A stretch of DNA of 64,000 nucleotides from assembly GCA_010093605.1 (NCBI GenBank), contig MU004195.1:620001-684000 (forward strand). The letters are read 5' to 3'. How positions within the stretch are numbered: the stretch's first letter is position 1; each line of letters begins with the position of its first letter. The DNA is from Lophium mytilinum. Lineage: Eukaryota. The position numbers and the translations under genes are program-made. A model generated the notes under the pieces. That model was not told the origin of the DNA. It did no database searches and saw only the letters and a list, made by a program, of their open reading frames with translations. This document shows, piece after piece, positions 16,615 to 52,279 of this stretch.

Positions 16615-17185
16615 GGCGATGCAGCAGCCTGAGCGGCGTAGTGATTTGGACGGCGGGTACCTGCAGGGGCGATCTGAGGCGTGGGCGAGCGATCTGTGGT
16701 CTTGGAGAGAGAGGGCTGGCTGAGTCGTGGTTTGCGGAGTGTTCGTTGGAGCTTGGCACCGATGTCTCAATCTCAGGGGTGGCGCATGGGGATCACGGCT
16801 CGACAACCTCAAACCCCCCTTCCCAGCACGAACCCAGACCACGCCAAACTCTTTGACACGCCCCCCAAATGTGCTGATGCGCCCGCAAAGCCTAGATCCC
16901 GTCTGCGCTCACGGCGCGCGTTGACCCACCATCGTCACCGTTCACGGCCGGGGGACACCTTTGTCGAGTTCTCCGAGCCCGTGTTGTTGACGACTGCCGC
17001 CCACTATACCACCTGCACCCCTCAACGCATAAGGCTGTATCAGCCAAGTCGGAACCGTGGCTCACATATCCTAGAGGCCCTGTCTAGGGCATTGCAACGA
17101 CACCGATTCACGCCGCGTGAGATACGATTTGGACCGCCCGCCGCAGCTGCCACCGCCAATACCGATACACATCGCATCCTGCGCC

Positions 17186-20100
17186 ATGCCTTCGAATGCG
17201 CAGCAGGATGGCAAGTCGAGGCAATCATCGGGGGGAAAGGGCTTTTTTGGAAAGAGACTGCACAAGGAGAAGCAGCCCCCCGCCGTTGAAGGACATCTCT
17301 ATCCCGGCACCCCAAGTCAGCCCCCCAGCCAACCCAGTTCGCAATCCTCGAGACATTCGCATAGAGCTTCAGTTGCATCAATAGAGCGGCCAGTATCCAT
17401 GGGGTTGGATTCGGGGCTTTCTATGACCGCAGGCGTCATAACCTCGATTCCCTACGACAACATGCCCATGGACAGTCGTTCACCTGTCCCCGTGGAGTAT
17501 CTACCCAACGACGACCCGAGAGCCGCTCGACGAGCAGAGCCTCTGCCACACCATTTGAATAAAGGAGGAGGGGACTTCCACCAATATCCTGTATTTGATC
17601 CCTCTCGCCCACCTACCAATGGCTCATCCAGCTCCGGTCCACCTAGACCACCGCCGCATGGGTCCGGCACTACCATAACCACCAGTCAGCCTGGCGACCG
17701 AGGAGTGTCGGTACAACAATGGGGGGGTGGGGGCCGGAGTAGCAATGCCAACGGATCCAACAACCAGTATAGCCAGCAGTCGTACCAATCCTACGTAACC
17801 GACTCGTCGAACAACACGCGCACGTCCTCGGATCAGGCCAGCATTTACTCCACCGATTCTAAGCACCGCGACCATCGCCTCTCCAACATGTTTTCGTATT
17901 CAGATAACCGCTCGCAGAGCACCTTCTCTTCTCTTGGTCTTGACAACCAAACCCTCCTCCCTACCGCCGGTGCTATGGGCATACACATGAGCGCGAGAGG
18001 ATCCCACCAGCATCTCCCGCCCAACCACCCATCCGCCTTCTCATCGACTGCATCGTTTGCGCCAGAGAGCTTCAACCTACAACGACCGCCAGACCATGTT
18101 ATAGAAAAGGAGTTTATGAACTTGATGGTAAAACGCGGCTGGAAAAGCTTACCGGAGCAGGCCAGACGGCAGATGGAAGCATACAAGATTGACAAGAAGT
18201 GGACTCTGGTGTATCAAGATAAACTCGCCGAATACCAGCACGAGCAAAAGAAGAGGCAGACGCAACGTACGACCTACACTGGATCTGACGCGATGGGAGG
18301 CATACTCAGCCGCGCAGAAGAAGAGGGAAGCCCCGAGTGGTACGTGCGGAGAGTTATGGACAACTCCATATCAGCAAAGCAACTCCAGAGTCTATCTGTC
18401 AGTCTAAGAACACAGCCTATCGCATGGGTCAAGGCGTTTGTAGAGGCGCAAGGCCAAATCGCACTCACGAATGTACTCGGCAAGATAAACCGTAGGCAAG
18501 GCCAAGGCCCAGCGCCTCCGATGAGGGACCAATCATCACCGGACAAGGACTTGGATAGGGAATACGACATCGTCAAGTGTTTGAAAGCGCTCATGAACAA
18601 CAAATATGGCGCCGATAACGCCCTCTCGCACTCGCAAATCGTCATGGCTTTGGCTGGATCATTAATATCTCCGCGACTAAATACAAGGAGACTGGTTTCC
18701 GAAGTTCTCACCTTTTTATGTCACTGGGCAGATGGTCAGGGGCACATGAAGGTGCTCCAAGCGTTGGACCACCTAAAAACGCAGCAAAATGAGAACGGCC
18801 GATTCGATGCATGGATGCGGATTGTCGAGGTCACCATCGATGGTCGTGGAAAGATGGGGTCCTTGGTCGGCGCTTCGGATGAGGTCCGCAGCGGTGGCAT
18901 TGGAATGGAGAACCTTCTAATGGAATACGCTGTCGCTTCAATGTTCCTCATCAACATGATTGTTGACGCCCCTGAAAGGGAACTTCAATTAAGGATGCAT
19001 ATACGATCACAATTCAGGACATGTGGCATCCAGCGTATTTTGACTAAGATGGAAGGATTTCAGTACGAGGTCATCGACAAGCAGATCGAGCGCTACAGGA
19101 CCAACGAAGCTATCGACTATGAAGATTTTCTCGATACAGAGAAGAATTCGATGGTTGACAGCGTTGAGGGCGAGGTCAAAGATATGAACGACCCTTCGGC
19201 CATTATTGATGCTATCATGAGCAAGATTCAGGGCAGCAAGACCGAAGACTACTTTGTCTCCGCACTACAGCATCTTCTCCTAATACGGGATAATGAAGGG
19301 GAAGAGCGGTTACGCATGTTCCAGCTTGTCGAATCCATGTTGAGCTACGTGGCCATGGACCGCCGGCTACCAGATATGGACCTCAAACAGAGTCTTAATT
19401 TCTCCGTTCAAAGTCTGTTAGATAGGCTGTACACCGATGGCGAAGCCCGCCTAGTACGAGACGAGGCTCTCGAGGCTCGTCAAATCGCAGACTCGGCCAT
19501 TGCAGAACGCGATGAAATGAAAGCCCAGCTCGAGCTTGGCGCCGATGGAGTTGTGGCAAAACTACAACGACAGCTCGAAGAGCAGGCGTCCATTATCGAG
19601 TTACGAGGAAGGCAAGTTGAAGCCATGAAGGCTGAGCTTGCTGAAATCCAACGGATACGAGCGCAAGAGTTGCAGCGCAATGAGCTCGAGACTCGCGAGC
19701 TTTATCTTATGCTTCGCGATGCTCAAGATGTTGCTGCATCTGCGTCGAAGAAGGGCGGTAAAGAAGCTCTCGGTGCCACTGATCCAACTCAAATGCAAGG
19801 TATTCTAGATCGTGAGAAGCTGATGGGTAGACTCGAAATCCAGCTACAAAGGGCAAAGACACAGGCACAGCTAGAGGGCAAGAACATGAACCAAGTCACG
19901 CCGTCCGAGAAGCTTCGTGAACTCCGAGAACGGATGGAGGGCGAGAGCAGTGGACAAGCTCAGGATTACAGCCATTTCAGCAGCATGAATCTAGGTTCTG
20001 TCACGCGGCAGAAAAGTGCTATGCCAAGGAGGAAGCCAATCGGTGGAGACTCCACGATCGAGGAAGATGGCAGGATGCCTGAAGTCAACGAGGATGAGGA

Positions 20101-22748
20101 GGATGTGATCATCGAAAAGCCGAGACTTGTGGAAATGAGAAGGCCGAAGATGAATGCACAACAAGCTACTGGTCTCCTCGGGGAGATCGCCAACAAGGTC
20201 AAGAGATACGATGAGAGCGACGATGAGGAAGGGGACGGTGTCACGACCGGTCCTTCGCATCCAAGTCTCGATTCCGACCCCCAAACGCCCGCAGATACCG
20301 AAAAGGCTGAAACCATCCCACCCAAGGCTGAAGCTTCGGCGATACCTCCACCTCCACCTCCTCCACCCCCTGGGATGCTTGGATTTCCAGCCGCTCCTCC
20401 CGGAATACCTCCACCTCCGCCTATGCCCGGATCTAATAATAATGCTAATATTCCCCCTCCGCCACCTCCGCCCCCTGGAATGCTTGGCTTTCCTGGTGGT
20501 CCTCCCGGTATTCCACCTCCTCCACCAATGCCTGGAATGGGTATCCCGCCTCCTCCGCCAATGCCTGGTCAGATGGACGGCTCTATGCCTCCTCCTCCGC
20601 CACCTGGAGGGTTTATTCCTGGCGCACCGCCCATGCCAGGGGCAAGGCGTGGTGGATTCATGCCACACCAGAACCAGTTCAACGCCGCACCTTCCATTGG
20701 TCTTTCAGTTGCGCGCCCGAAGAAGAAGCTCAAGGCTCTCCATTGGGAGAAGGTCGATGCGCCACAGACCACCATTTGGGCCAACCACGCACCGACGCAT
20801 GAAGAGAAGGAGGAGAAGTACCGCGAACTTAGCAACAAGGGTGTTCTCGACGAAGTTGAGAAGCTGTTCTTGGCAAAAGAGATCAAGGCCATTGGCAAGA
20901 AGACCTCCAAGAAGGACGAGAAGAAGCAAATCATCTCCCGCGATCTCATGCAGAACTTCCAGATCAGCATGTCTAAATTCAGCACCCTGTCCGTCGATGA
21001 GATCGTGCGCAGCATTATTCATTGCGACAAGGAACTGCTAGACAACACCGTGGTCATGGAATTCATGCAAAAGAATGATTTCTCTGACATCCCTGATAAC
21101 ACTGCTAAGCTCATGGCACCGTACTCCAAGGACTGGTCTGGTCCGAATGCCGTGGATAGCAAGCGAGAGCAGGACCCGAACGAGTTGACGCGCGAGGACC
21201 AGATCTACCTCTACACTGCTTTCGAGTTGCATCACTATTGGAAGAGCAGGATGAGGGCGCTTACACTCACCCGGACTTTCGAAGCCGACTACGATGAGAT
21301 TGCCGGAAAGTTGCAAGAAGTCGTCCGGGTCTCGGAATCTTTGCGTGACTCGACGTCTTTGATATCAGTTCTAGGACTTATCCTCGACATCGGTAACTTC
21401 ATGAACGATGCTAACAAGCAAGCCAACGGTTTCAAACTCTCTACTCTATCTAGGTTGGGTATGCTAAAGGACGACAAAAACGAAAGCACCTTCGCCGATG
21501 TGGTCGAGCGAGTTGTCAGGAACCAATATTCAGGCTGGGAAGGCTTTGCGGATGAGATTGGCGGCGTCATCACTGCCCAAAAACTCAACGTCGAACAGCT
21601 CCAGCTCGACGCGAAGAAGTACATTGACACCATCAAGAACGTGCAGATGTCGCTTGACTCTGGCAACTTGTCTGACCCAAGCAAGTTCCATCCTGAGGAC
21701 AGGGTGAGCATCGTCGTGCAAAGGAGCATGAAGGACGCGAGGAGGAAAGCGGAGCAGATGCAGTTGTTCCTCGAAGAGATGACCAAGACCTATGATGATA
21801 TCATGGCGTTCTACGGCGAGGATCCGACAGATGACAATGCGCGGAGAGACTTCTTTGCGAAGTTGGCGGCGTTCGTTCAAGAGTGGAAGGTTGGTGTCTC
21901 TTTCCTCTTCATCTTCTCATATTCTTACGCAATTTGGAGGAGGACAAGGGCAAAGACGAGCGTAAGGAGGAATTCACTTGTGTTCTTGAAGCTTACAACG
22001 TGCACAGAAATCCCGCGAAAAGAACATCGCTCTCGAAGACCAGCACCGCAGGAACGAAGCCTCCATGCGCCGCAAGCAGATCAACCCGGCCCTCGCCAAC
22101 ACAACCGCGGCCTCCTCCGCCGACGGCGCACCCCCCTCTCCAGCTTCTACCGGCGCCATGGACACGCTCCTCGAGAAGCTCCGCGCCGCCGCCCCGCAGG
22201 CCCGCGATCAGCGCGACCGCCGCCGGCGCGCCCGCCTCAAGGACAGACACCAGGTACGGGTTGCGTCGGGCCAAAACATCCCAGAAGTCGGCCCCGGCTC
22301 CGACGACGGCGGCGACGCCGAGCCGAGCAATGTTGGTCTACTAAGCCCCAAATCGGAGGGTGACTCGGACGGCCCTACCGTCGTCAGCCCAACAGATGCT
22401 GAGCAGGACGTTGCGGACCGCGCGGCGAGTATGCTGCAGGGCCTCCGCGGCGACGGGGACGACGGTGTCGCGCGCGACGACAGTCTAAGAGTCCGAAGAC
22501 GACGAGAAAGCGCGGATGATGAGCGGAACCGGAGGAGGAGGAGGCGGCAGGCGGCTGGGAGTAGTGATGATAGAGCTGGTGTGGCTAGCCCGCCGCCGAT
22601 TGCAGAAGAAGGGGAGGATGGGGAGGGCGCGGGGAGTCGGGACCGTGATAGCGGTGGGAGTGGGGGAACTGCGCCGGTCACAATCGTGCATCCGCCTAGT
22701 CCGGAGCAGGAAGTGAGGCGGTTGCCGACGCCGCCTGGGGACTCGTGA
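17186..22748 (+). CDS. sepA: Formin (GBD/FH3, FH1 polyproline, FH2, DAD); intron 21890-22007
   Basis: CLKALMNNKYGA in the GBD, polyproline FH1, KLKALHWEK and IGNFMN..GFKLSTL in FH2, and the MDTLLEKL..RRRAR DAD motif. Confidence 0.96.
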
Positions 22749-24114: not shown

Positions 24115-27100
24115 TTATACCAGGAGGAACACTTCAAGCTTCTCATTCGACAGTGCATCTGCGCCGACTATTCCAAAAACGTAGCAATCTCCAACCAAGC
24201 AGAACGTGTTTAGAGCCGGAGCTCGTCGAAGGATAAACGGCACTTTTGCGCCAACTATTGCCACCACAAGATCGCCAGCTTCTATGTTGGCAGGTCCCAG
24301 TCCAAGAAAGCCTTGTGCGGTAGTGAATGGTCGGCGGAAAGCGGAAACCCTTGCTATAGTAGCAAATTCGCGTTTCACAGTGTCGTTTATGACTCTTTGG
24401 GAAAAGAAATTGATGGAAGGTTTTTCGGACGGTATTTTTGCGGTCCACGTGCCTTCTTTGGTCAACTTCAAGCCTGCGCTTAAAGTGAGCCATACGGCTT
24501 CAGATCTCTCTTCGATGTCCGGAAACAGTTCCTCCGCAAAAGAGTACAAGCCATGTATGTATTCTACAGCATTTCGAAGCGGGCCCTTCGGGTCCTTCAT
24601 GACATCGTTTTCAGCGCCAGAGATCTGAATCCAAGGAACTCCAAGTCCCTCGACCAGACCAATTAAAGTACCATAAACCTGAAGGGTATGGTGATCGTAT
24701 AAGGATGGCAAGTGGTGAAGCGACCGGGTAGTGGTGTATGATGAGGACTGGCTAAATATTAGACCCGGCTTCAGGCTTGACCAATCCGGCACCCATGAGG
24801 GGAGTCCCGGAACGCATTTCTGGTGTCCGACATGTGATAAGATGTCAAGTTTCCCGGAGTGGCGACGGATGGCTGCTGTAGCCCTGGTAAAGACTTCAGA
24901 CGGCGAGTGCCTGTAATCAGGAAATATCCCAAGCTCTTCTGCATCACAAGACAACCCGAGAACCGCGTAGACCGAATCTCGTGGGTCTGACGCCTTATAA
25001 CTGCGGAGACGAGCCAGCAGTTCCAGCAATTCGATCTTCCTTTTGCGCCTCCTCAACGATTCGAAAACAGACATCTTCCTGAGCGATACTGCAATCGTTA
25101 AGGCCAAAGCAAAAGCAGGAGACTCCTCTAGTGGAACTTTCTGTTTGTTCGACGCTACAAACTTCTCCAATATCCTCAGAAAATGGTGCAGAGGTTCCCA
25201 ACCAATCTCTTTGTCTCCAACAACGACTGTCGTACGCCGAGCGAAAACAACTTCTTGGATAACCCATACTCGACCAAACCATGGGCGCTTGAAGAACTCG
25301 CCAAGGGCGTGTCCAAGGGAAATGGCTTGTGCTGCATTGGTATACAAATGAGCATAGTTGTCCGAGTAAGAATCCTTGATACTGGACGAAAGGTTTTGCC
25401 GACTATCCGCGGGATGCTCACTGAACATAGAGTTGTCAGAATGCTTCCCTAGTGGAGAAAAGGGCTCGCTCATATTCGATACCCATTGCCATACTTTGTC
25501 GCTAGCTTGATCCCTTTCTCCAAGCCACGCAATAACTGACTGGGCAGAGCTATAGATATCTGCGATGAGGCGGATCTGGGAGCTTTTCTCGTGCAAGTTC
25601 TTCTGGTTTATGCAAATCTGATCCACCCAGAGCGCAACCTTGGGTCGGTTGATTCGCATTGCTCGAAGAAAATCGTACAAATTATCAGTAACAGGTAGTG
25701 GGCATCCGTCAATATCAATTAGGCGACTACTTGAAGGATTTCCCCATGTATACGAGAGAGCGACGTATTCGGGGTTGCTTTGTAAAGAAACGGATCGTAG
25801 AGAGCAGCTGATTGTCTGGACGCCACTATCCGGAAGTATCTCCAAGAGACGAATCTCGGCTCGAGAATCGTTAAGAGGCGCGTAAAGATAACTACCGGTT
25901 TTGCGTGATTCCAGGAGATTTGTGACAACTGAGTGAGCAAGGACATGCGCTCGTTGTGACGATATGCCGCTCAAACTTGGCGAAGGCGGAAAATGTGGAT
26001 TCAAGGCCATGTCAGTGTCGACCCGGCAAAGGTTTGATATCGCAGACGACGCATTCGTAATCAGGTCTCTCGGCGTTGACTGGGAACCTGTGCTGACTGC
26101 CGGATTCAACTTCTCCATGATGCCGCCGTTTGCCTTTTCTACACCACTTAGCGCAGAGCAACACCGACTAGGTGGAAAGCAATTCGCTACATGCAGAGCG
26201 GAAGGCCGGTTTGTTGACTTAGGATCCAGCATGTTGCACAACACATTCATTTGCTTAATGTCGAGCGTGGATCTGAGGGCACCTGTTACCAAGTAACGCT
26301 GTTTCAGGATGTCTGAAACGTTAGACAATGAACTCATACCAGGATAGCCGTTGTTGACATCAAAAGCCATAGTTGTTTCGAGGAAGACGCAGCCTAGAGA
26401 AAACATGTCAGACGCCCGAGATGTACTAGACTGATGAGAAATGACTTCAGGCGCAGCATATCTTCTTGTGAAAGCCATCGAGGAACCGTAGTCGGGAATG
26501 GAAGCAATAGTGCAAGAGCCAAAATCCGCTATGCACCATCGATCGTCCTGCATGATCAATATGTTTTCTGGTTTCAGATCGCCGTGGCAGACTTCCTTGT
26601 CATGTATAGCAGCCACTGCGGAAGCAAGACACCCAAGATGCTCCACACTGTTTGTTGGAGTAGACGCCGGAAGCTGGTTCTCTAGAAGTTCTCGCAGAGT
26701 GCCGCGTCCTATCGGCATCATCAAGCCAATGTGCCTAGAATCGAGAAGCAGCCCAAAGCAGGCCATGATATGTCGATGGCGCAGTCGACTGAGCGCTTGG
26801 AACTCTCGTACAAGGGACATGCCGTGTTTGCAACGTTTAAGGGGATTTTCTCGGTGCTGTTGAGGAATGATGCATTCTTTGAGGGCTATTGGTTGTCCTG
26901 AATCGAGTCTAAACTTGGAAACACAGGCTAGAGCGCCTCTGCCTACAATCTCCTCTCGGCGGATTTTGGCTTGAGGAATCTCTACTGCAGAGAGGCTTTG
27001 ATCCAGTAGATTGGATCTGATGAGCAGAGTCTGTTCGATCGGCAATATGGGTGAATGTGCTCGCTTCTCAAGATGAATACGGACGGCTTCATGAAGGAGG

Positions 27101-28035
27101 TTGAGAGTGTTGCACGTATTCCAACAATCATAGAACCACTTGCTAGGATCATCGTTTGAATTTCCGTCCCCATCATCTGGCCCATGGAAGGCGTCTCGGA
27201 AGAACCTATCCTGCTCATCATCGGGGAGTTGACCATCTCCAAAGTTTCCTGGTCCGTTAGAGCCATCTGGTTCATGATTGCTGTCGCCATTGTTGTTGCC
27301 GTCGTCGTCATCGTCGTCGTCGTCTTCGTCGTCTTCGTCGTCGTTGTCGTCTTCGTCGTCGTTGTTGTCGTCACTATCATCTTCAATATCCTCCTCATCT
27401 CCGCCGTTGGTGCTACTGCTTTGACTTCTGCTATCGTCCCGGTCCTCGGTGTTGTCGAACTCGGCATCCCCAACTCTAGGCGGAGGGTAGGTGGCCAAAG
27501 GTGCAAGCCAGAGGTCCTGCCAAGATGCCATACTCATCCCATCCTTGAAATGCTTCTTGATATGAGCAACTCGTGTGTCCCAATCGATGAAAAGGTCGCC
27601 ACAGAACCCGCAGAACCTCGGGAAGGAGTTGTTGTTGGTGGGGACTTTCCACTGATCTACGATCGTCTTCGCATCAAGGTTTAGGTGGATGTTCTCGAGA
27701 TGTTGTTTCAAGTGGGCAGCCCTGAAAAACATCCGCCCGCCTTTCCCTGGTACCAAGTCTTTCTCTCGGCATGGTTTGACCTGATGATGTATTTCGAAGT
27801 GTCCTTCATTAGGGTATCGAACAGAACAATCTTTGAAAGTACAAACTTGGCCAGCGTCGTCTTCGAAAATGGTACCAAGATCACATACCCAAGCATGTTG
27901 AGGGTAGTTTTGCAGTTCGTGTCTCAGCCAGTCGCAATTAGTCCGCCACGATTGTCCGCAGCCCAAGGTGCACGCGTATCTTTTCTTCCGGTCGAACGGA
28001 ATCTGTCGGTTTGTTGTTCGTTCCTCGATAGTCAT
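24115..28035 (-). CDS. C2H2 zinc finger + acidic tract + Ser/Thr protein kinase + HET domain protein (3' part of a larger gene model)
   Basis: Zinc fingers YACTLGCG..WLRHE and CGFCG..HIKKHF. Kinase IALK, HGDLKPEN, DFG, YAAPE, SDMFSLG. HET YVALSYTWG, LWVDQICINQ, WFGRVWVIQE. HET-6-like C-terminus GFLGLGP..GD..LVGDCYV. Confidence 0.9.
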   Translation of the reverse strand: MTIEERTTNRQIPFDRKKRYACTLGCGQSWRTNCDWLRHELQNYPQHAWVCDLGTIFEDDAGQVCTFKDCSVRYPNEGHFEIHHQVKPCREKDLVPGKGGRMFFRAAHLKQHLENIHLNLDAKTIVDQWKVPTNNNSFPRFCGFCGDLFIDWDTRVAHIKKHFKDGMSMASWQDLWLAPLATYPPPRVGDAEFDNTEDRDDSRSQSSSTNGGDEEDIEDDSDDNNDDEDDNDDEDDEDDDDDDDDGNNNGDSNHEPDGSNGPGNFGDGQLPDDEQDRFFRDAFHGPDDGDGNSNDDPSKWFYDCWNTCNTLNLLHEAVRIHLEKRAHSPILPIEQTLLIRSNLLDQSLSAVEIPQAKIRREEIVGRGALACVSKFRLDSGQPIALKECIIPQQHRENPLKRCKHGMSLVREFQALSRLRHRHIMACFGLLLDSRHIGLMMPIGRGTLRELLENQLPASTPTNSVEHLGCLASAVAAIHDKEVCHGDLKPENILIMQDDRWCIADFGSCTIASIPDYGSSMAFTRRYAAPEVISHQSSTSRASDMFSLGCVFLETTMAFDVNNGYPGMSSLSNVSDILKQRYLVTGALRSTLDIKQMNVLCNMLDPKSTNRPSALHVANCFPPSRCCSALSGVEKANGGIMEKLNPAVSTGSQSTPRDLITNASSAISNLCRVDTDMALNPHFPPSPSLSGISSQRAHVLAHSVVTNLLESRKTGSYLYAPLNDSRAEIRLLEILPDSGVQTISCSLRSVSLQSNPEYVALSYTWGNPSSSRLIDIDGCPLPVTDNLYDFLRAMRINRPKVALWVDQICINQKNLHEKSSQIRLIADIYSSAQSVIAWLGERDQASDKVWQWVSNMSEPFSPLGKHSDNSMFSEHPADSRQNLSSSIKDSYSDNYAHLYTNAAQAISLGHALGEFFKRPWFGRVWVIQEVVFARRTTVVVGDKEIGWEPLHHFLRILEKFVASNKQKVPLEESPAFALALTIAVSLRKMSVFESLRRRKRKIELLELLARLRSYKASDPRDSVYAVLGLSCDAEELGIFPDYRHSPSEVFTRATAAIRRHSGKLDILSHVGHQKCVPGLPSWVPDWSSLKPGLIFSQSSSYTTTRSLHHLPSLYDHHTLQVYGTLIGLVEGLGVPWIQISGAENDVMKDPKGPLRNAVEYIHGLYSFAEELFPDIEERSEAVWLTLSAGLKLTKEGTWTAKIPSEKPSINFFSQRVINDTVKREFATIARVSAFRRPFTTAQGFLGLGPANIEAGDLVVAIVGAKVPFILRRAPALNTFCLVGDCYVFGIVGADALSNEKLEVFLLV
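27290..27385 (-). repeat. GAC/GAT trinucleotide-rich tract encoding a poly-Asp linker
   Basis: (gtc/ttc)n run on the + strand encodes DDNNDDEDDNDDEDDEDDDDDDDD. Confidence 0.85.
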
Positions 28036-28071
28036 ATTTCTAACACATGTGGGTCGATTTCTGGCGCATGC

Positions 28072-29286
28072 TTATACCGCGAGATCGAAGCCGGAGAGTC
28101 CAAGAGCCGGAACTGGGTTGCTTGGAGCAGTACTGCCATTCCCGACCGTTATGTCACCACTATGGACATTGACTGAACCGGCTGGGGCATTTACAGCAAA
28201 CCAGCGGAGAATTGAGATATAGGAGTATCGAGTGAGATTTTCGAAAGCATTGATTTGATCTGGTCCTGGGAAGGAGAGTTCGAAGCGGTTGTATTTCACC
28301 CAGCATTGGAATTGATCGATTACATTCTGTGGAACCTCTGGAGCTAATTGAGCTGTCGCGAAGGACGTCGTTTGCGAGCCACAGAATTCACCCAAGTCGT
28401 AGAACCAGCGATGTATGGTTTTGTCCTTAGCTCTAGTGAGGACTACGAGCGATGTGATTATGTCTAGGCCGGCTGAGGTACCCGGATTTGCGGCTCTCCA
28501 GAGTTGAAACTGATATTTCGCACCACGGAGCGACGGTGCCATGTGAAGATCGTCCTTTCTCGACGCATTGCTGACTCCAGTATATGCTTCGCCGGTGTGT
28601 GGACCGCTTTTAGCTAGTTCGTAGAGGGTGGGATTCGAATGACTTTCCCCAGAAGTGTGGGTGAATCCAACGTTGTCGGAGGTTGACAGCGAATGAGCGG
28701 TAGGGTACGGTCCAGAGGTAGCCTGCCCCATGAGTTTGCTCAGCTAGATGACAATTAGCCCAAAACAACAATCGTCTGAAAGTATGTTCCCGAGAGGGCC
28801 AACCTACCGGATGGTCGTTATAACTACTAGAGCAGCCTGTCAAGTAGATCGCCCTCCTATGTCCAAAATTTACAGCTTCAGCATTCGGGATGGTGTTGAG
28901 CGCCTTATTATACGTTAGTAACATGGTAACACTTGATTGCGTTGAGAACATTTGGCTCTAATTTGCCATCTCCTAAAGCGACCTTTGTCTCTGAAAAAGG
29001 TGGCACAATTGGACTTCCGAAAATCCATTGAAGCCCCAGAAGTAATCGTATGGTGAGGCGTTGCGTGAAATAAATCATGACAACTTACAGTATTAGTCTC
29101 GAAAGGTCGCGCCTGAGCGTTTTGTAGGGGACGCCACGCGTCCTCAACTGAGTCCATGCTGGACAAGCAAGTTCCCTGAACTGCATTGGGTGGATAGAGC
29201 CTGTTCGATGAACGCTTTGAAGGCCTGGGATGGATTTGCGCAAGCTCCTCTCGGTCTCGGGTTCGTTTCGTTCCAAGGCCCTCCAT
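28072..29286 (-). CDS. N-terminal part of the same gene with two degenerate homeodomain-like segments (exons 29286-29089, 28903-28808, 28743 onward); in-frame TAA at 28074-28072
   Basis: Two W...P......LT......I.RWF segments (TIHRWF, SILRWF). Phase-0 introns have TACTAAC and GCTAAT branch sites. The frame continues past the TAA into the ORF at 28035. Confidence 0.55.
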
Positions 29287-30640
29287 ATTTTCGACATTCA
29301 CGGTAATATATGGGCATTCGCTGCAGGATGAGGTGTAGAAAGGAGACAACAGTATGGACAGTCTGCATAGGTGACTGATGACCTGGGCGGGCGGTCCTGC
29401 TTGGATATGCCATAACCACACCAGGAGGGCGACATCGCCTTCAATGAGGCTCTGAGACCGGTCAGAAGTCGCCCTCGAGGCTGATGTGACGGTGGCGCTG
29501 TGCTGAAGCCGAGAAAGTGAGCCTTGCAAACCTTGGAAGGCGATGCGAGTGCTGGGCCGTGGACGGGGCGTTCGCCGATTCTCATTGGATGGATTCTTGT
29601 GACCTGAAGCGTGTACTTCAGAGAAGACTACGATTTCTCCGTATGAAAATATGGTTTCTTGGAATACCCCGAGCACGCGTATGTCCTTTTACCACTCTGC
29701 GTGACTACGTCGTCTGAGGTGGCCTAACAGGTTTAGTGTTTTTGTGAGATAAAATGCTGAAGCAAATCAGACCGCGGCAGATTACCAAGGTAGTAACTAG
29801 TGCCCCAGTTTTGGGATCATCCTAGCAAGAATCCTGGAGAATTTCAAGGTAGACATACTTTTCTGGGCAATACTGCTAGTTGCACTGCTAGAATTAGTGC
29901 TATCGGAGCTTGAACATACAAAGTTCTACTATAGAATAAAGTAGGCCTGCTGAGCTCGGGTAATTTGCGAGTAATTTGCGAACTACTTATCGTTTTTCGC
30001 AGTCGTGTCGTTGAAGGGCCTTGCTATGTTAGCAAGTAAGGAGCAAAGACTCAATTTATCAAAAATGATGTCCAGGAACACAATGCTATGCGCCCGTAAA
30101 TGATCACAGGAGCTCACGGGTTTGTTGAGCCTGCTCTGTTCGAGCCCTTGTATAGGCAGGATCAAGGTAGTTCTGAATGAGACAGGTCGCCGTAGAGCCA
30201 CGACATCCAGCTGCTTTGTAATGGCAAGACGTCTATACTTCAATTCGTCTAATTTGAAAGAGGCTTGGTGTGTGTTTGAAGCACCTCGGAATCATCAAGG
30301 GATTCTGCATACTTGGTGCTGTAGCCAATCAGCGTCGTGTATACGGTTAAGGGTGGATCGAACACCCCTGTCCGCCCTGTTCGTCCCCCCGCCCTATTCA
30401 TCGCTGCGACCAAAACCCACCTACACAACTGTTTTGTTAGTAATCTGACGTATGTGGAAAGATAGAGAATATAGCTGTGGAGTATGTTGAACTCGATATA
30501 TAAATGTGATGTTCGCTGTCAATCGAAGAATCATCACACTCTCAAAATTCCCTTCACAGCCTCCTCAAAGTGACTCTGACCAACAATATTTTATATCCAA
30601 ACATCTTCCAACCAGTTCCACAACAACAAAGACTCTCACA

Positions 30641-47855: not shown

Positions 47856-48773
47856 AGTGGTAGCTGAAGACCGGCAGTGGGGATTTGTATATACTGATTC
47901 TCTTTTTTCCCATCTCCTAACGGTCAACACTCGTTTCTTTCCGGGTCAGACTTTGGATCAGCGACCTGGATACTTGCATGCTCTGTACAACTACTGATTG
48001 TTTGTTTTCCATTCCTCAATCTTGGGCCATGCGGGCCAATACCTTTGGCTAAGGCTGGTGCATCTGCTTAAATTGCATGGAGTTAGGAGTCGTTTTTTCC
48101 ATCACTTGCCTTTTGCTATTCGAATACTTTGCTCTAATCTTTTCCTTCTTTGCTTTTCATTTTCTGCGTTTGGGCAATTCTGTTACCGGCCCTGTGTGGG
48201 CTTTGTTGCTTTGGGTTTCTATGGGGAGGGTTTTGTTAAGCTGGGCTTGCTTGGTGGTGGGCGGTACTGATACCCGGAATGGATGTATCATAGGCAATGC
48301 TATTGGCTTTCAAGTGCTACTGGATGCAAACGTGTGGTGAACTTCTGCTTGTGTCCTAATATAGTGACTCTCTACAGATAGTATAGACCCATCTACCTCC
48401 GTCTAAAGTAGCTTGTTGAGTCTGCCGCTTGTTCCAAATGTAAGGACTTCAGGCCCGTTTATAATGTCAGAAGCGTGTCAAAGGGCTCTGGAATTGGACA
48501 CACAAACTTTCATTCCTACGAAGCTGGGTATGCAGAACCCCATGAACACTCCTTTTTGGCCTGGATTTTCAAGCCTAAGTTGAGACATTTGTGAAGGGTC
48601 CAAAAGGCTGAAGGCGGTGGCAGAAAGTGGGTCTTGGCTTTCGACATCGACGTTTCTGCCTTGACCTTCACCTCACCACGACTTCGCAACTACACCACCC
48701 TGTCCACCCTCTACCGGATGCTACGCTAAACACCAACAACCCGCGAGGACGAAGCGTCTTCTACACCTCCGCC

Positions 48774-50297
48774 ATGCCGTCTCCCACCCCTTCGCAAGCG
48801 CTCAGCAAGCGTAACAACACCACCGCCCTCATGGGCCCTCCCCCAGTCCCGAAACGCCGCAAACGCCCCGCCACCGTCCTCGACGAAGACGTCTACACCG
48901 ACGCCCTCTCCCACATCATCGCGCGCGACTTCTTCCCGGGACTCCTAGAAACCAAGGCGCAACAGGAATACCTCGATGCGCTGGACTCGCAAGACTCGAC
49001 CTGGATCGCCGCCGCGGGCCGCAAGCTCACAGATCTCATGGGCGAAGACGGGCGCAAGATGCGGGGCCGTCGCGGGACCAGCATGGCGCCGAGCATGACG
49101 CCGATGACGCACCTTGGAAGAGCAGGGAGCGAGACGCCGCGGGCGTGGGGCGGCGCAGAGACGCCTGTGTCTGTGGCAGGGTCGTCATTCGGGGGATCCG
49201 AATACAGTGATGGGGAGCGGAAACAAGGGGTGGATCTGAATCTGAGCTTGACCGCGTTCCAGGCGAAATACACGTCGGAGGATAACGAGAGCTTCAACAA
49301 GCTGCTCGATCGCGAGAACGCGCGCAAGGCGGAGAAGTACGCGTGGGCCTACAACGGGAACAAGATCCTCGCGAACCGGCAGGTGATGCACCGCGAGCGC
49401 GAAGCGGCGAAACAGCTCGAAGCGAGCGAGGCCGCACGGCTCGAGGAGAAGGACGGCGAGGCGGCGTCGGCGGTGCTGAAGACCCATCGTCTCGTCACCC
49501 CTCTCGATGCCCGCCCTGCGATGCCAACCTCCGCACCGCATCGACCCAAGAACGCGCTCATGTTCCCTCCGGACTCGGTCGAAGAGACTCACACCACTGC
49601 AGCTATGAAAGCGGAGTCAGCGTCCATGGCACCCCCCAAGAGCGTCCTGCACGCGAACACCCGCTTCCCCAACCCCTCGCTCGACCCCTTCCGCCCAGAC
49701 GACCCGCCCTCGCCAACCCTCTCCGCCGTTCAGGACGCTATCGCAGGCCGGCCGCGCCCAACGGAGAGCGAAGCGGGCTATACCGGCGCCGAAACACCAC
49801 GCGTCGGCGGATATGCGTTTGTAGATGCTGATCCTGATGAACCGCCGCCGCTGGACCTACTCCGGGGCTACGGCGAGCAATCCGGAAGAGGAATTTTCGA
49901 AATCTCGGAGACCGGTCGCCGAGAGAAGTTGCACGATAAGATGGTGGAGCGGCTTGGCAGAGGGAAGAGAGAGGGCAGTGTGGCGAGTTCTAGTAGCTCG
50001 ATGATCTCCAGTATCAAGGGCGGGCCAACGCCGCGGTTTCTCAGTGCGCCGGGTAAGGGGACGAGGGGCAATCTAACGCCGGCGGCGCTGAGGCTGTTTG
50101 AGCGGGTGGGCACGCCGAAGCGGGAGGGGCTGGGAAGTGCGTTTGGGGGAGCGATGGGGGAGAAGAATGAGAGTAGGAGTGCGTGGGAGCCGACGCCGAA
50201 GAGGGGGGATGATGGCGGTAGCGGGGCGTTTGGCGGTGGTGTTGGGTCGAAGAGTTCGTGGACGCCAACGCCGAGAGTGAAGAGGATGATGGGGTGA
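48774..50297 (+). CDS. ESS2: Splicing factor Ess2/DGCR14 (Es2-like)
   Basis: VLDEDVY..LSHIIARDFFPGL, LSLTAFQAKYTSEDNESF, KNALMF, TPRVGGYAFV, LTPAA. Confidence 0.9.
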   Translation: MPSPTPSQALSKRNNTTALMGPPPVPKRRKRPATVLDEDVYTDALSHIIARDFFPGLLETKAQQEYLDALDSQDSTWIAAAGRKLTDLMGEDGRKMRGRRGTSMAPSMTPMTHLGRAGSETPRAWGGAETPVSVAGSSFGGSEYSDGERKQGVDLNLSLTAFQAKYTSEDNESFNKLLDRENARKAEKYAWAYNGNKILANRQVMHREREAAKQLEASEAARLEEKDGEAASAVLKTHRLVTPLDARPAMPTSAPHRPKNALMFPPDSVEETHTTAAMKAESASMAPPKSVLHANTRFPNPSLDPFRPDDPPSPTLSAVQDAIAGRPRPTESEAGYTGAETPRVGGYAFVDADPDEPPPLDLLRGYGEQSGRGIFEISETGRREKLHDKMVERLGRGKREGSVASSSSSMISSIKGGPTPRFLSAPGKGTRGNLTPAALRLFERVGTPKREGLGSAFGGAMGEKNESRSAWEPTPKRGDDGGSGAFGGGVGSKSSWTPTPRVKRMMG

Positions 50298-51274
50298 ACT
50301 GGTCTTCACGAAGACTCGATGTCACTCTACTTCTTTATGCTGGGAAGTGCGAATCACGCTTTACAAGCAAGGTATGTCACTTTCTTTTCTACATGCACAG
50401 CATTGGCGTTTTTCCCCTTTGGATTCACTTCGAAACGGCTGAGCTGCGAATGGCGGATCGCTGGATACGCTAGCTCTGGTAAGGCTAGTGGAGACTCGTT
50501 GAACATCAACTGCCCATGGAATCAACCGTCGAAATTGAGGAGACATGGGTGCTGGGTGTTATTGGGTGGGAGAACCGTTTGGAAGTGCTCCTAGGTTCTG
50601 CTTTCAGGAGAGCGATGTCGTTGATCCACATCGACGTATGGGAGGGCTGCGGTGGCGCATGGAAATGCGCAATGGCTGGGCAACGGAATTAGATAGACAT
50701 GAATGAAAGCCCAGAAGGGCAAGTCTTGGCGGTCAGGAAAAGTGTTGAAGCTAGAATGTGTCAAAACTTGTCAGTCGGGTTGAGGTGTCTTCTGGACAGC
50801 TCGTGTGATTGAGGTCTGATCTTGGGGTGGGCGTCAAAAGGATTGTGAATTCGACCTGGAATCAGCAACCTTTAGTCCACAGTTCAAGATTCAGGCTAGA
50901 AACCTGATGCGTAGCTGAGAGATTGAACATGAATTCAGTGAGTGCTTCGATCACTTTTGCCATGCCCCAAAACGATCCTCCCACTCTGCACATTCCATTC
51001 AGAGCACATAAAAGCGCTGGCAAAACACTGGTATCATCATTTTCTACAAGCCCCTCTTTCGTCTCCTCGTCCGTATCCAATATCTGCTGCTCAAGACGCC
51101 GTGCGCCGAGACTCTCCATCCCTCATACGCCGAAGGAAGCAATCCCTATCTGCTTCTGTGATCTCAGAAGTAGTTCCTTGGAATGCTTCATGCTAGAAGC
51201 CAGCAGGACCACTTCTTCCTAGAAACGCGCCTTGTTCAGTTGAATCTAACAGAACATCCTCCCCGAAGACTCGC

Positions 51275-52279
51275 TTAGTAGAACGATTCAACCATAGTGT
51301 CTTTATTCGTCGTGTTGATAGCGCTGGGGCCCATGCCCTCGCCGAGCCGGAAGACGGACTCGACGACCGAGAGCTCGGTCGCTGTGGTATCGAGGCCTGA
51401 AAATCATACCCATTAGCACGCCATCTTCCACACCCTCCCATCCCCACCAGGACGGAAGCAATCAGAGCCCAGAACATACCAGTCACAGCCATCCAATCGT
51501 TCACCACCATCCCCGCACCTACAACACTACTCCCGCGATTCACGCTGCCCGCCACCAGCGGCACCTGCAGCAAGCTCGACAGCTCGTCCTGGTCCTGCAC
51601 GCTGGTCTTGGGATGCACGATGCCGCCCTGATTGCTCAGCGCCATGTAGCTGCCAGTCAGCACGTTGTCCGCAATGGTCTGCCGGAACACCTCGACGCCC
51701 AGCACGTCGGCGATGATCTCCTCGGTCTCGCGCTCGATGTCCGGGTGCACGAGCGCGACGTGGTCGTTGGCGCAGATGACGTTGCCGAGTGCGGAGAGCC
51801 GCTCCTCGATGCGCTGGATCTTGACGGCGTCGGGGAGCGAGTTGCGGAGGTGCGCGAGTTCTTGGTCGGTGGTTGAGGTGGGGACGAGGAGGCCTTTGCG
51901 GTTACTTTGGAGGGTGTTAGTTGGGTCTGTGTGTCTTTTTGGAGGCCTTTGGGAGGGGGAGGGGGAGGGGTGGTTACCCAGCGGTCAACCGCCCTACTAT
52001 CCGTGTGCCTGCGATCGTGGCGTGGCAGATGGGTATCACGTCCTGCAGTTCGGCTTCGAAGACGCTGTAGAAGTTCTCCGAGGCGCCAACGGCGACGATG
52101 GCGTAGGCGTTTGTGAGGGTTGCGAAGACGCCGACCCTGTGGTTCACATCTTATCAGTATAAATCTCTACATAGCAAGTTCGAGGTTGAAAGTTGAGGTC
52201 ATGGTGTTCCCCTCTTCAATCTCATAGCGGGGCAGAAAACTCACTCGTTCGAGTTCTCAAATTGTGCGCGGACCGCCAT
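51275..52279 (-). CDS. TIF6: Eukaryotic translation initiation factor 6, 4 exons
   Basis: [63 protein letters not shown], ending VESFY*. Confidence 0.97.

Follow-up and report, generated by a model that had tools for sequence, protein, structure and literature searches.

Heterokaryon incompatibility (HET) domains are sufficient for cell death, are frequent in incompatibility genes, and have been proposed as distant relatives of TIR domains (PMC12881547; PMC10197012). In the Podospora NOD-like receptors (NLRs) HET-E, HET-D as well as HET-R, a HET domain and a putative recognition part are combined in one polypeptide, with HET at the N-terminus and driven by a NACHT nucleoside triphosphatase (NTPase) and WD40 repeats (PMC12881547). 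Protein kinase domains have been reported as N-terminal domains of NLRs (PMC4986451; PMC9815663), and fungal C2H2-homeobox factors (the VdChtf1-7 / Ste12 class) join a homeodomain and C2H2 fingers in one protein (PMC11423567), with neither kinase nor HET domain. Here we describe a locus of the fungus Lophium mytilinum that combines these elements differently: its HET domain is C-terminal, it has no NTPase, and a kinase separates the putative recognition part from the effector. The locus occupies positions 24115-29286 of a 64,000-nucleotide stretch of contig MU004195.1 (assembly GCA_010093605.1, positions 620,001 to 684,000), hereafter the window, whose numbering we use throughout; retrieved proteins are cited by number (P0001 and so on).

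The locus is transcribed from the minus strand as a single spliced unit. On balance we regard it as probably a transcribed, divergent, nonsense-split member of a recurrent family of ascomycete C2H2-kinase-HET proteins with a putative immune role. The family layout would run from a variable N-terminus through a four-finger C2H2-type module, an acidic linker and a catalytically complete, non-arginine-aspartate (non-RD) Ser/Thr kinase to a HET domain. The window copy would depart from the family core in carrying two degenerate homeodomain-like segments in front, and a HET domain and tail of HET-6-like kind; and a TAA would split the ancestral frame into open reading frame (ORF) A, of 321 residues and homeodomain-like, and ORF B, of 1306 residues with the C2H2-kinase-HET part.

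The gene structure rests on genomic frames and assembled transcripts. Two open stretches of one minus-strand frame, of 223 codons (28072-28743) and then of 1318 codons (24115-28071), follow each other with the TAA at 28074-28072 as sole separator. Transcript contigs came from one public run that holds 89% of the region's sampled words; that this run is RNA is a guess, and we took its contigs as complementary DNA because they contain intron-shaped joints with consensus splice signals. No run listed as RNA covers the stretch, and the contigs, which leave 24115-24135 uncovered, were used for what they bridge alone. The overlapping contigs extend from 29661 down to 24136, contain no variant letters, and skip two stretches (29088-28904 and 28807-28744), both GT..AG-ended on the minus strand, each with a consensus donor and a branch site (Table 1). 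A 4662-nucleotide (nt) contig then continues without a mismatch or a break from 28743 to 24136, straight over the TAA. Spliced from the ATG at 29286, ORF A comprises 66 + 32 + 223 = 321 codons followed by the TAA; the next in-frame ATG, at 28035 and 12 codons past the stop, opens the 1306 codons of ORF B. The limits 24115-29286 of the original prediction thus agree with the transcript-supported exon structure, and its single reading frame does not stand: the in-frame stop is unspliced in the transcript contig, and public annotation ends there.

That annotation is P0045, an NCBI hypothetical protein of L. mytilinum (Dothideomycetes, Mytilinidiales) of 278 residues, found by a HMMER search with the 223-residue piece of ORF A; all 223 residues of this piece agree with it (100% identity), and its last codon is the one before the TAA. 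The search, against 1.84 billion representatives, returned four proteins in all, of which P0048 from Glonium stellatum (354 residues, E 8.1e-5) begins MEGL, as ORF A does, and carries both homeodomain-like segments of ORF A. The remaining two, P0046 and P0047, were rejected as relatives, being tandem-repeat proteins with 14 and 8 weak stretches, and the ESM Atlas queried with ORF A gave no usable match. For ORF B, an exact look-up found none of ten Met-to-stop forms as a public protein, and a search returned no near-identical public protein of 718-2286 residues.

Translation of ORF B from the full-length message is doubtful. The spliced mRNA has 6 AUGs ahead of the ORF A start and 21 ahead of the ORF B start; because of the latter, the kinase-HET arm would be expected to go untranslated from the full-length mRNA. 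The six AUGs in the leader (29287-29661) open short frames of 45-95 codons, which suggests that ORF A may itself be poorly translated. A separate 33-nt contig at 27311-27342, with a depth of 138, lies on the GAT/GAC repeat coding the poly-Asp run, and probably derives from similar acidic repeats of other transcripts.

The stop appears to be derived. When X is put in place of the TAA, ORF A and what follows it align with P0048 across the stop as far as the last residue of P0048 (E 6e-15), so that the ancestral gene was most likely a single frame. That the 1318-codon frame has stayed open speaks for a very recent stop or for an ORF B that is still used: ORF B may be a recently disarmed allele, or a protein made from a shorter transcript alone. 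Repeat-induced point mutation was considered as the origin of the TAA and rejected: TpA/ApT is 0.60-0.71 and (CpA+TpG)/(ApC+GpT) 1.12-1.24 across the gene, and the flanks are alike. The internal and terminal stops share the heptamer GGTATAA on the minus strand (28072-28078 and 24115-24121), possibly by chance.

The kinase of ORF B spans residues 372-628 of the 1318-codon frame, scores 123 bits against a Pfam Pkinase cut-off of 31.7, matches PDB kinases down to E 3.1e-15, and retains the G-loop, Lys, Glu, HxD Asp, Asn, DFG and APE, so that direct reading and the Pfam match bear out the intact Lys/HGD/DFG/APE motifs first proposed. We aligned it with 35 relatives, these being the fetched proteins that passed the motif filters. 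The catalytic residues are invariant in all 36 sequences, allowing a one-column register shift at the Lys, which would fit a signalling role; the middle residue of HxD is M in 20, L in 14, F in one and, in the window alone, G, and is Arg in none (0/36). In both plants and animals, kinases of the non-RD type have a link to receptors of innate immunity. In a quick maximum-likelihood tree of 66 kinase rows, 38 family rows including the window, together with the kinase-ankyrin protein P0006, fall on one side of a branch with a Shimodaira-Hasegawa-like approximate likelihood ratio test (SH-aLRT) support of 97.

The HET domain is equally complete and has a different affinity. It occupies residues 769-940 of the same frame, scores 105 bits against a cut-off of 22.5 over profile positions 1-146 of 146, and its blocks read YVALSYTWG, LWVDQICINQ and RVWVIQE; in an alignment of 18 sequences (A3) Y46, S50, W53, D94, C97, I98, Q100, R211, W213, Q216 and E217 are invariant. 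The closest domains are those of P0001, P0003 and P0004 (BLAST E 1.8e-23 to 1.4e-18), while no family member does better than 3.7e-8, and the tail matches these three proteins only (BLASTP, E 1.7e-11 to 6.9e-7); together with the full-profile match, this confirms the predicted full HET domain with a HET-6-like C-terminus. A quick maximum-likelihood tree of 39 HET rows places the window with four kinase-less HET-6-like domains (SH-aLRT 99), opposite 34 kinase-linked domains. Because the kinase groups with the family and the HET domain with kinase-less HET-6-like proteins, we infer that the effector end was swapped or joined independently.

The HET-6-type proteins (P0001, which is NCBI 'heterokaryon incompatibility het-6' of Fusarium coicis; P0003; P0004) have all three HET blocks, as does the window, and are 30-43% identical to its C-terminal region over 56-189 residues. 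They differ in having no kinase, zinc fingers or acidic linker, whereas the window HET follows a kinase on its C-terminal side; the HET domain is present twice in P0001, and in P0003 it is preceded by a NACHT-type module. The family PF26639 is precomputed on all three. P0003 (Xylographa bjoerkii, 1295 residues) has a HeLo-like/PigL_N region and the NACHT-type module before its HET domain, a C-terminal placement that is unusual, as HET is usually N-terminal in fungal NLRs. Pfam searches of three ORF pieces of the locus found no NACHT or NB-ARC domain at E<=0.1; the window protein is therefore not an NLR, as the original prediction of an NLR-independent module had it. A PDB search with the HET region gave chance-level lectin matches alone (E 0.29 or worse), and in a metagenome scan one of 41 candidate stretches was related, a 1442-nt contig over the HET tail alone.

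The front of ORF B identifies the family. BLAST by parts matched the window's C2H2 and kinase parts best to C2H2-kinase-HET proteins, and ORF B is collinear with P0005/P0050 through C2H2 module, acidic linker, kinase and HET (E 5e-28); P0050 and P0052 (1511 residues, Helotiales) are full-length cluster mates of P0005, with a long N-terminus ahead of the same series of domains, and P0050 has a strongly basic stretch ahead of its fingers. The window thus has the family's collinear C2H2 module, acidic linker, non-RD kinase and HET domain, although its HET and tail are not of the family-core kind. A profile of the C2H2 module (alignment A1), searched against longer proteins at E<=1e-3, found 60 proteins. 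Pkinase and HET domains occur together in 36 of them (906-1562 residues), the named ones mostly from Helotiales (Cadophora, Mollisia, Phialocephala, Oculimacula, Coleophoma and others) and the remainder metagenomic. The other matches were one protein with homeodomain, kinase and ankyrin repeats, one with homeodomain, ankyrin repeats and a degenerate kinase, two stand-alone homeodomain and C2H2 forms, four with a Pkinase_C match, one of other type, and 15 with no Pfam family. In the ESM Atlas, five of 30 matches, each a cluster of at least 50 members, carry Pkinase and HET (best score 0.94), and two of these five are listed with 63 and 57 members. The linker between fingers and kinase holds 16-33% aspartate and glutamate (D/E) in all 36 rows measured, P0088 having been dropped because its anchor motif is missing.

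The original prediction was to fall if the architecture proved common and already described. It is common (36/60 profile matches, 5/30 Atlas matches), but our literature search met no description of a kinase-HET or zinc-finger-HET protein, though supplementary architecture tables could list one. The Helotiales-type proteins (P0050, P0058, P0084, P0089), annotated merely as hypothetical or 'protein kinase domain-containing', have the same order of C2H2 module, acidic linker, non-RD kinase and HET as the window; their C2H2 part is 27-39% identical to it, and their kinase lies on the same side of the SH-aLRT 97 branch. They differ in the kind of their HET domain (E 4e-8 at best, where the HET-6-like proteins reach 1e-23), in a tail unrelated to the window's, and in an uninterrupted frame. 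Across the 35 aligned relatives the HxD motif reads HMD, HLD or HFD, and in the window HGD.

Other ends occur on the same front. P0002 of Trichoglossum hirsutum has Pfam matches to homeodomain, C2H2 finger, Pkinase and ankyrin families; it is collinear with the window (E 5e-36), as is P0056, from homeodomain through C2H2 module and acidic or low-complexity linker to kinase. In P0002 and P0056 the homeodomain, which is the best match of window segment 2, reaches the Pfam threshold where the window's does not, and the C-terminus carries ankyrin repeats instead of HET. As read from sequence, one zinc-finger-kinase chassis is joined to at least three different C-terminal ends. Five long proteins (P0094, P0095, P0098, P0099, P0104; 1265-1520 residues) have the C2H2 module and no Pfam family elsewhere, and may carry further unnamed C-terminal ends on this chassis. 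P0092 and P0100 are of the stand-alone homeodomain and C2H2 kind, as are the published C2H2-homeobox factors (PMC11423567). Some genomes encode both a long C2H2-kinase-HET protein and a short protein ending just past the C2H2 module: P0059/P0061 (Cadophora gregata), P0058/P0090, P0091/P0093 and P0084/P0102. These long/short pairs may have the look of a guard and its guarded target, or else be mis-annotated fragments.

The C2H2-type module itself (about 190 residues) has four finger-like units. The last finger is fully canonical (C-x2-C-x12-H-x3-H), and alignment A1 has invariant Cys and His columns; by direct reading of that alignment, window fingers 1 and 3 are each short of one canonical ligand. 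Over the first 212 residues after ATG 28035, searched at E<=10, Pfam zf-C2H2 (17.8 bits, cut-off 25.2) and zf-C2H2_4 (16.9, cut-off 27) both stayed sub-threshold. A family profile of three sequences matched classical DNA-binding fingers in the PDB, PRDM9 at E 2e-5 and Zif268 at E 1.9e-4; a word-indexed search with ORF B residues 1-190 gave 27 candidates, none significant. The fingers of the original prediction are thus upheld by their spacing and the PDB matches, and qualified by the Pfam scores and by the ligand missing from two of the four. The poly-Asp linker was rightly called, with 25 D/E in its best 30-residue window.

The two predicted homeodomain-like segments of ORF A have weak profile support, no Pfam match and a lost motif. 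No Pfam homeodomain (PF00046 / PF05920) was found in the ORF A region even at E<=10, and the upstream frames matched no Pfam family at E<=0.1. The helix-3 DNA-contact motif WFxNxR is not kept, the segments reading RWFYDLG and RWFAVNA. Segment 2 matches the Pfam-called homeodomain of P0002 by BLASTP at E 0.037. Four segments, two from the window and two from Glonium, aligned by hhalign to three Pfam-called homeodomains with a probability of 72.8% (E 3.2e-5, 43 columns), the segments having been cut around the W-F pair, which favours a match. In a set of 113 sequences, a hidden Markov model (HMM) of the four segments found the P0002 homeodomain at E 3.8e-4; in reverse, a homeodomain HMM found Glonium segment 2 at a domain E of 2.4e-4 and the window at merely 0.83. 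An HMM search detected no homeodomain-like segment in the Helotiales family members. AlphaFold, given a two-sequence alignment, drew two three-helix groups for this region with no confidence (mean predicted local distance difference test score 33.9).

Table 1. Features of the locus in window coordinates (all on the minus strand), with the basis for each.
Feature	Position	Strand	Basis
ORF A exon 1 (66 codons, MEGL...)	29089..29286	-	contig joint 29088/28904; frame reading
Intron 1, 185 nt; GTAAGT donor, CTAAC 15 nt from 3' end, AG acceptor	28904..29088	-	skipped in contig record 3
ORF A exon 2 (32 codons)	28808..28903	-	contigs; agrees with public protein P0045
Intron 2, 64 nt; GTAGGT donor, CTAAT 15 nt from 3' end, AG acceptor	28744..28807	-	skipped in contig record 1
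ORF A exon 3 (223 codons), carrying both homeodomain-like segments	28075..28743	-	100% identity to P0045 residues 56-278
Homeodomain-like segment 1 (...FQLW...LTR...IHRWFYDLG), degenerate	28384..28521	-	alignments and HMMs; no Pfam homeodomain
Homeodomain-like segment 2 (...FQCW...LTR...ILRWFAVN)	28180..28323	-	BLASTP, hhalign to homeodomains of relatives
In-frame TAA ending ORF A	28072..28074	-	continuous 0-mismatch contig; P0045 ends here
Possible intron of 75 nt, in frame (GTATAA...ACAG); its removal would join ORF A to ORF B	28003..28077	-	poor signals; no splicing seen
ORF B start (ATG 28035) and C2H2-type module, four finger-like units	27466..28035	-	profile and reading
Finger-like units	27895-27978, 27784-27843, 27685-27729, 27550-27615	-	direct reading
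Acidic linker, 33% D/E; poly-Asp core 27283-27381	26959..27465	-	composition, reading
Ser/Thr protein kinase, non-RD (HGD)	26188..26958	-	Pfam Pkinase PF00069 E 1.9e-35
Kinase motifs: Lys in IALK; HGDLKPEN; ADFG; AAPE	26875-26889; 26563-26586; 26518-26529; 26446-26457	-	
HET domain (PF06985); conserved blocks all present (three, WxxQE among them)	25252..25767	-	Pfam E 5.9e-30
HET-6-like C-terminal region, 378 residues; TAA stop 24117-24115 follows	24118..25251	-	BLASTP

The surroundings of the gene look like ordinary core genome. To the left lies a formin gene (17075-22748) with GBD, FH3 and FH2 domains, whose Pro-rich part and 3' end reach 68% G+C, and whose frame changes near 22000-22363, probably at an intron. 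The right-hand neighbours are first an ORF with no Pfam match and next a PrmC-like methyltransferase, with an Es2 nuclear protein (48612-50294) and eIF6 (51196-51984) further along the window. Between 21500 and 31500 we found no direct repeats and three weak inverted pairs, and rejected transposon-like borders on these grounds. The gene had been proposed as an accessory insertion; with no flanking repeats, no composition step at the gene and spacers of ordinary length, nothing marks it as one.

In intact relatives, the transcription-factor-derived module would act as a sensor or decoy, the kinase would relay its perturbation to the HET domain, and the TIR-related HET domain would act as executioner and kill the cell. 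Several points weigh against our interpretation of the locus and of its family. The claim of a derived stop rests on two distant relatives (25-34% identity), and the tail of the P0048 alignment is short. The RNA evidence consists of assembled contigs from a single run of guessed kind, with just two intron-shaped joints to point to complementary DNA; contigs lose rare isoforms and give no transcript ends, so that a minor spliced form or an internal start may have escaped. An open frame of 1318 codons with all motifs intact would fit a functional ORF B under selection as well as a nonsense mutation of very recent date. Just four domains make up the HET-6-like comparison set, and they were retrieved through their resemblance to the window; in the quick kinase tree the branch of the window is long (1.99) and falls outside the core of 35 rows. 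Finally, the sensor, kinase-gating and proposed NAD-cleaving (NADase) steps are putative.

The most durable alternative, though unlikely, concerns function: that the family is a nuclear signalling protein, built from a C2H2-homeobox-type transcription factor and a kinase, in which HET is a regulated, non-lethal enzymatic or interaction module. Fungi have an established subfamily of C2H2-homeobox factors, which serve in development and under stress (PMC11423567), and according to one review most HET-domain genes have no known incompatibility role (PMC10197012). The match of the C2H2 profile to DNA-binding fingers, and the basic stretch before the P0050 fingers, would also suit a nuclear protein. 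Cell death is, however, the only HET activity reported in the sources cited (PMC12881547; PMC10197012). The window's homeodomain-like segments and two of its fingers have lost canonical DNA-contact residues or zinc ligands, and what follows the module at the C-terminus varies, being either of two HET kinds or ankyrin repeats. Interchangeable C-terminal ends are a pattern typical of fungal immune-type genes.

A bolder proposal, which we hold as speculative and doubt will prove right in full, is that C2H2-kinase-HET proteins form a new, NLR-free class of receptors for immunity or cell death in fungi, on a plan like that of the integrated-decoy or tandem-kinase receptors of plants. The zinc-finger (sometimes homeodomain) module would be bait for something that targets stand-alone paralogues in the same genomes; a constitutively competent non-RD kinase would sense its perturbation; and an interchangeable C-terminal executioner, either of two TIR-related HET kinds or ankyrin repeats, would trigger death. 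On this view the allele in Lophium would be one that nature has disarmed or divided into two parts.

The other alternatives concern the stop. We think it improbable that ORF A and ORF B are two ancestrally separate genes, the C2H2-kinase-HET gene having its own promoter in or just after ORF A and the contig merging overlapping transcripts. Public annotation has ORF A alone, ORF B is fully intact with an A at position -3 of its ATG, and some predicted family members start almost at the C2H2 module (in P0075 the last finger is at residue 152). Yet the two share one frame with one stop and 12 codons between them, P0002 and P0056 each unite a homeodomain with the C2H2 part, in matching order, the P0048 alignment passes over the stop, and none of the ten forms of ORF B tested equals a public protein.

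Least likely of all, and quite improbable, is the continued production of one protein of about 1600 residues, with 28077-28003 removed at a low level or under particular conditions, or with the TAA recoded: this segment starts GT, ends AG, is a multiple of three and joins both frames exactly when removed, relatives hold these parts in one protein, and rare isoforms escape contigs, but the contig is continuous over the segment at a depth equal to its flanks, the segment has a GTATAA donor and no CTRAY branch site where the confirmed introns have GTAAGT/GTAGGT and CTAAC/CTAAT, none of the 44 in-frame GT..AG pairs spanning the TAA joins a 6/6 consensus donor with a CTRAY branch site, and recoding would face a strong terminator (TAA then G) that no single adenosine-to-inosine change turns into a sense codon, in contigs free of variant letters.

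We therefore return to a nonsense-split member of a recurrent C2H2-kinase-HET family as the reading that we favour. Few domains in fungal genomes are as abundant as HET, and few are understood as little; a review of 2023 notes the lack of a recent evolutionary analysis of HET proteins and describes their activity as undefined (PMC10197012). The window copy is of lesser value here because its frame is broken. A kinase wired directly to a HET domain without an NLR would offer a simple genetic handle on how HET is switched, and the joining of one zinc-finger-kinase chassis to two HET kinds and to ankyrin repeats points to modular, mix-and-match evolution, as in plant, animal and bacterial immune receptors.

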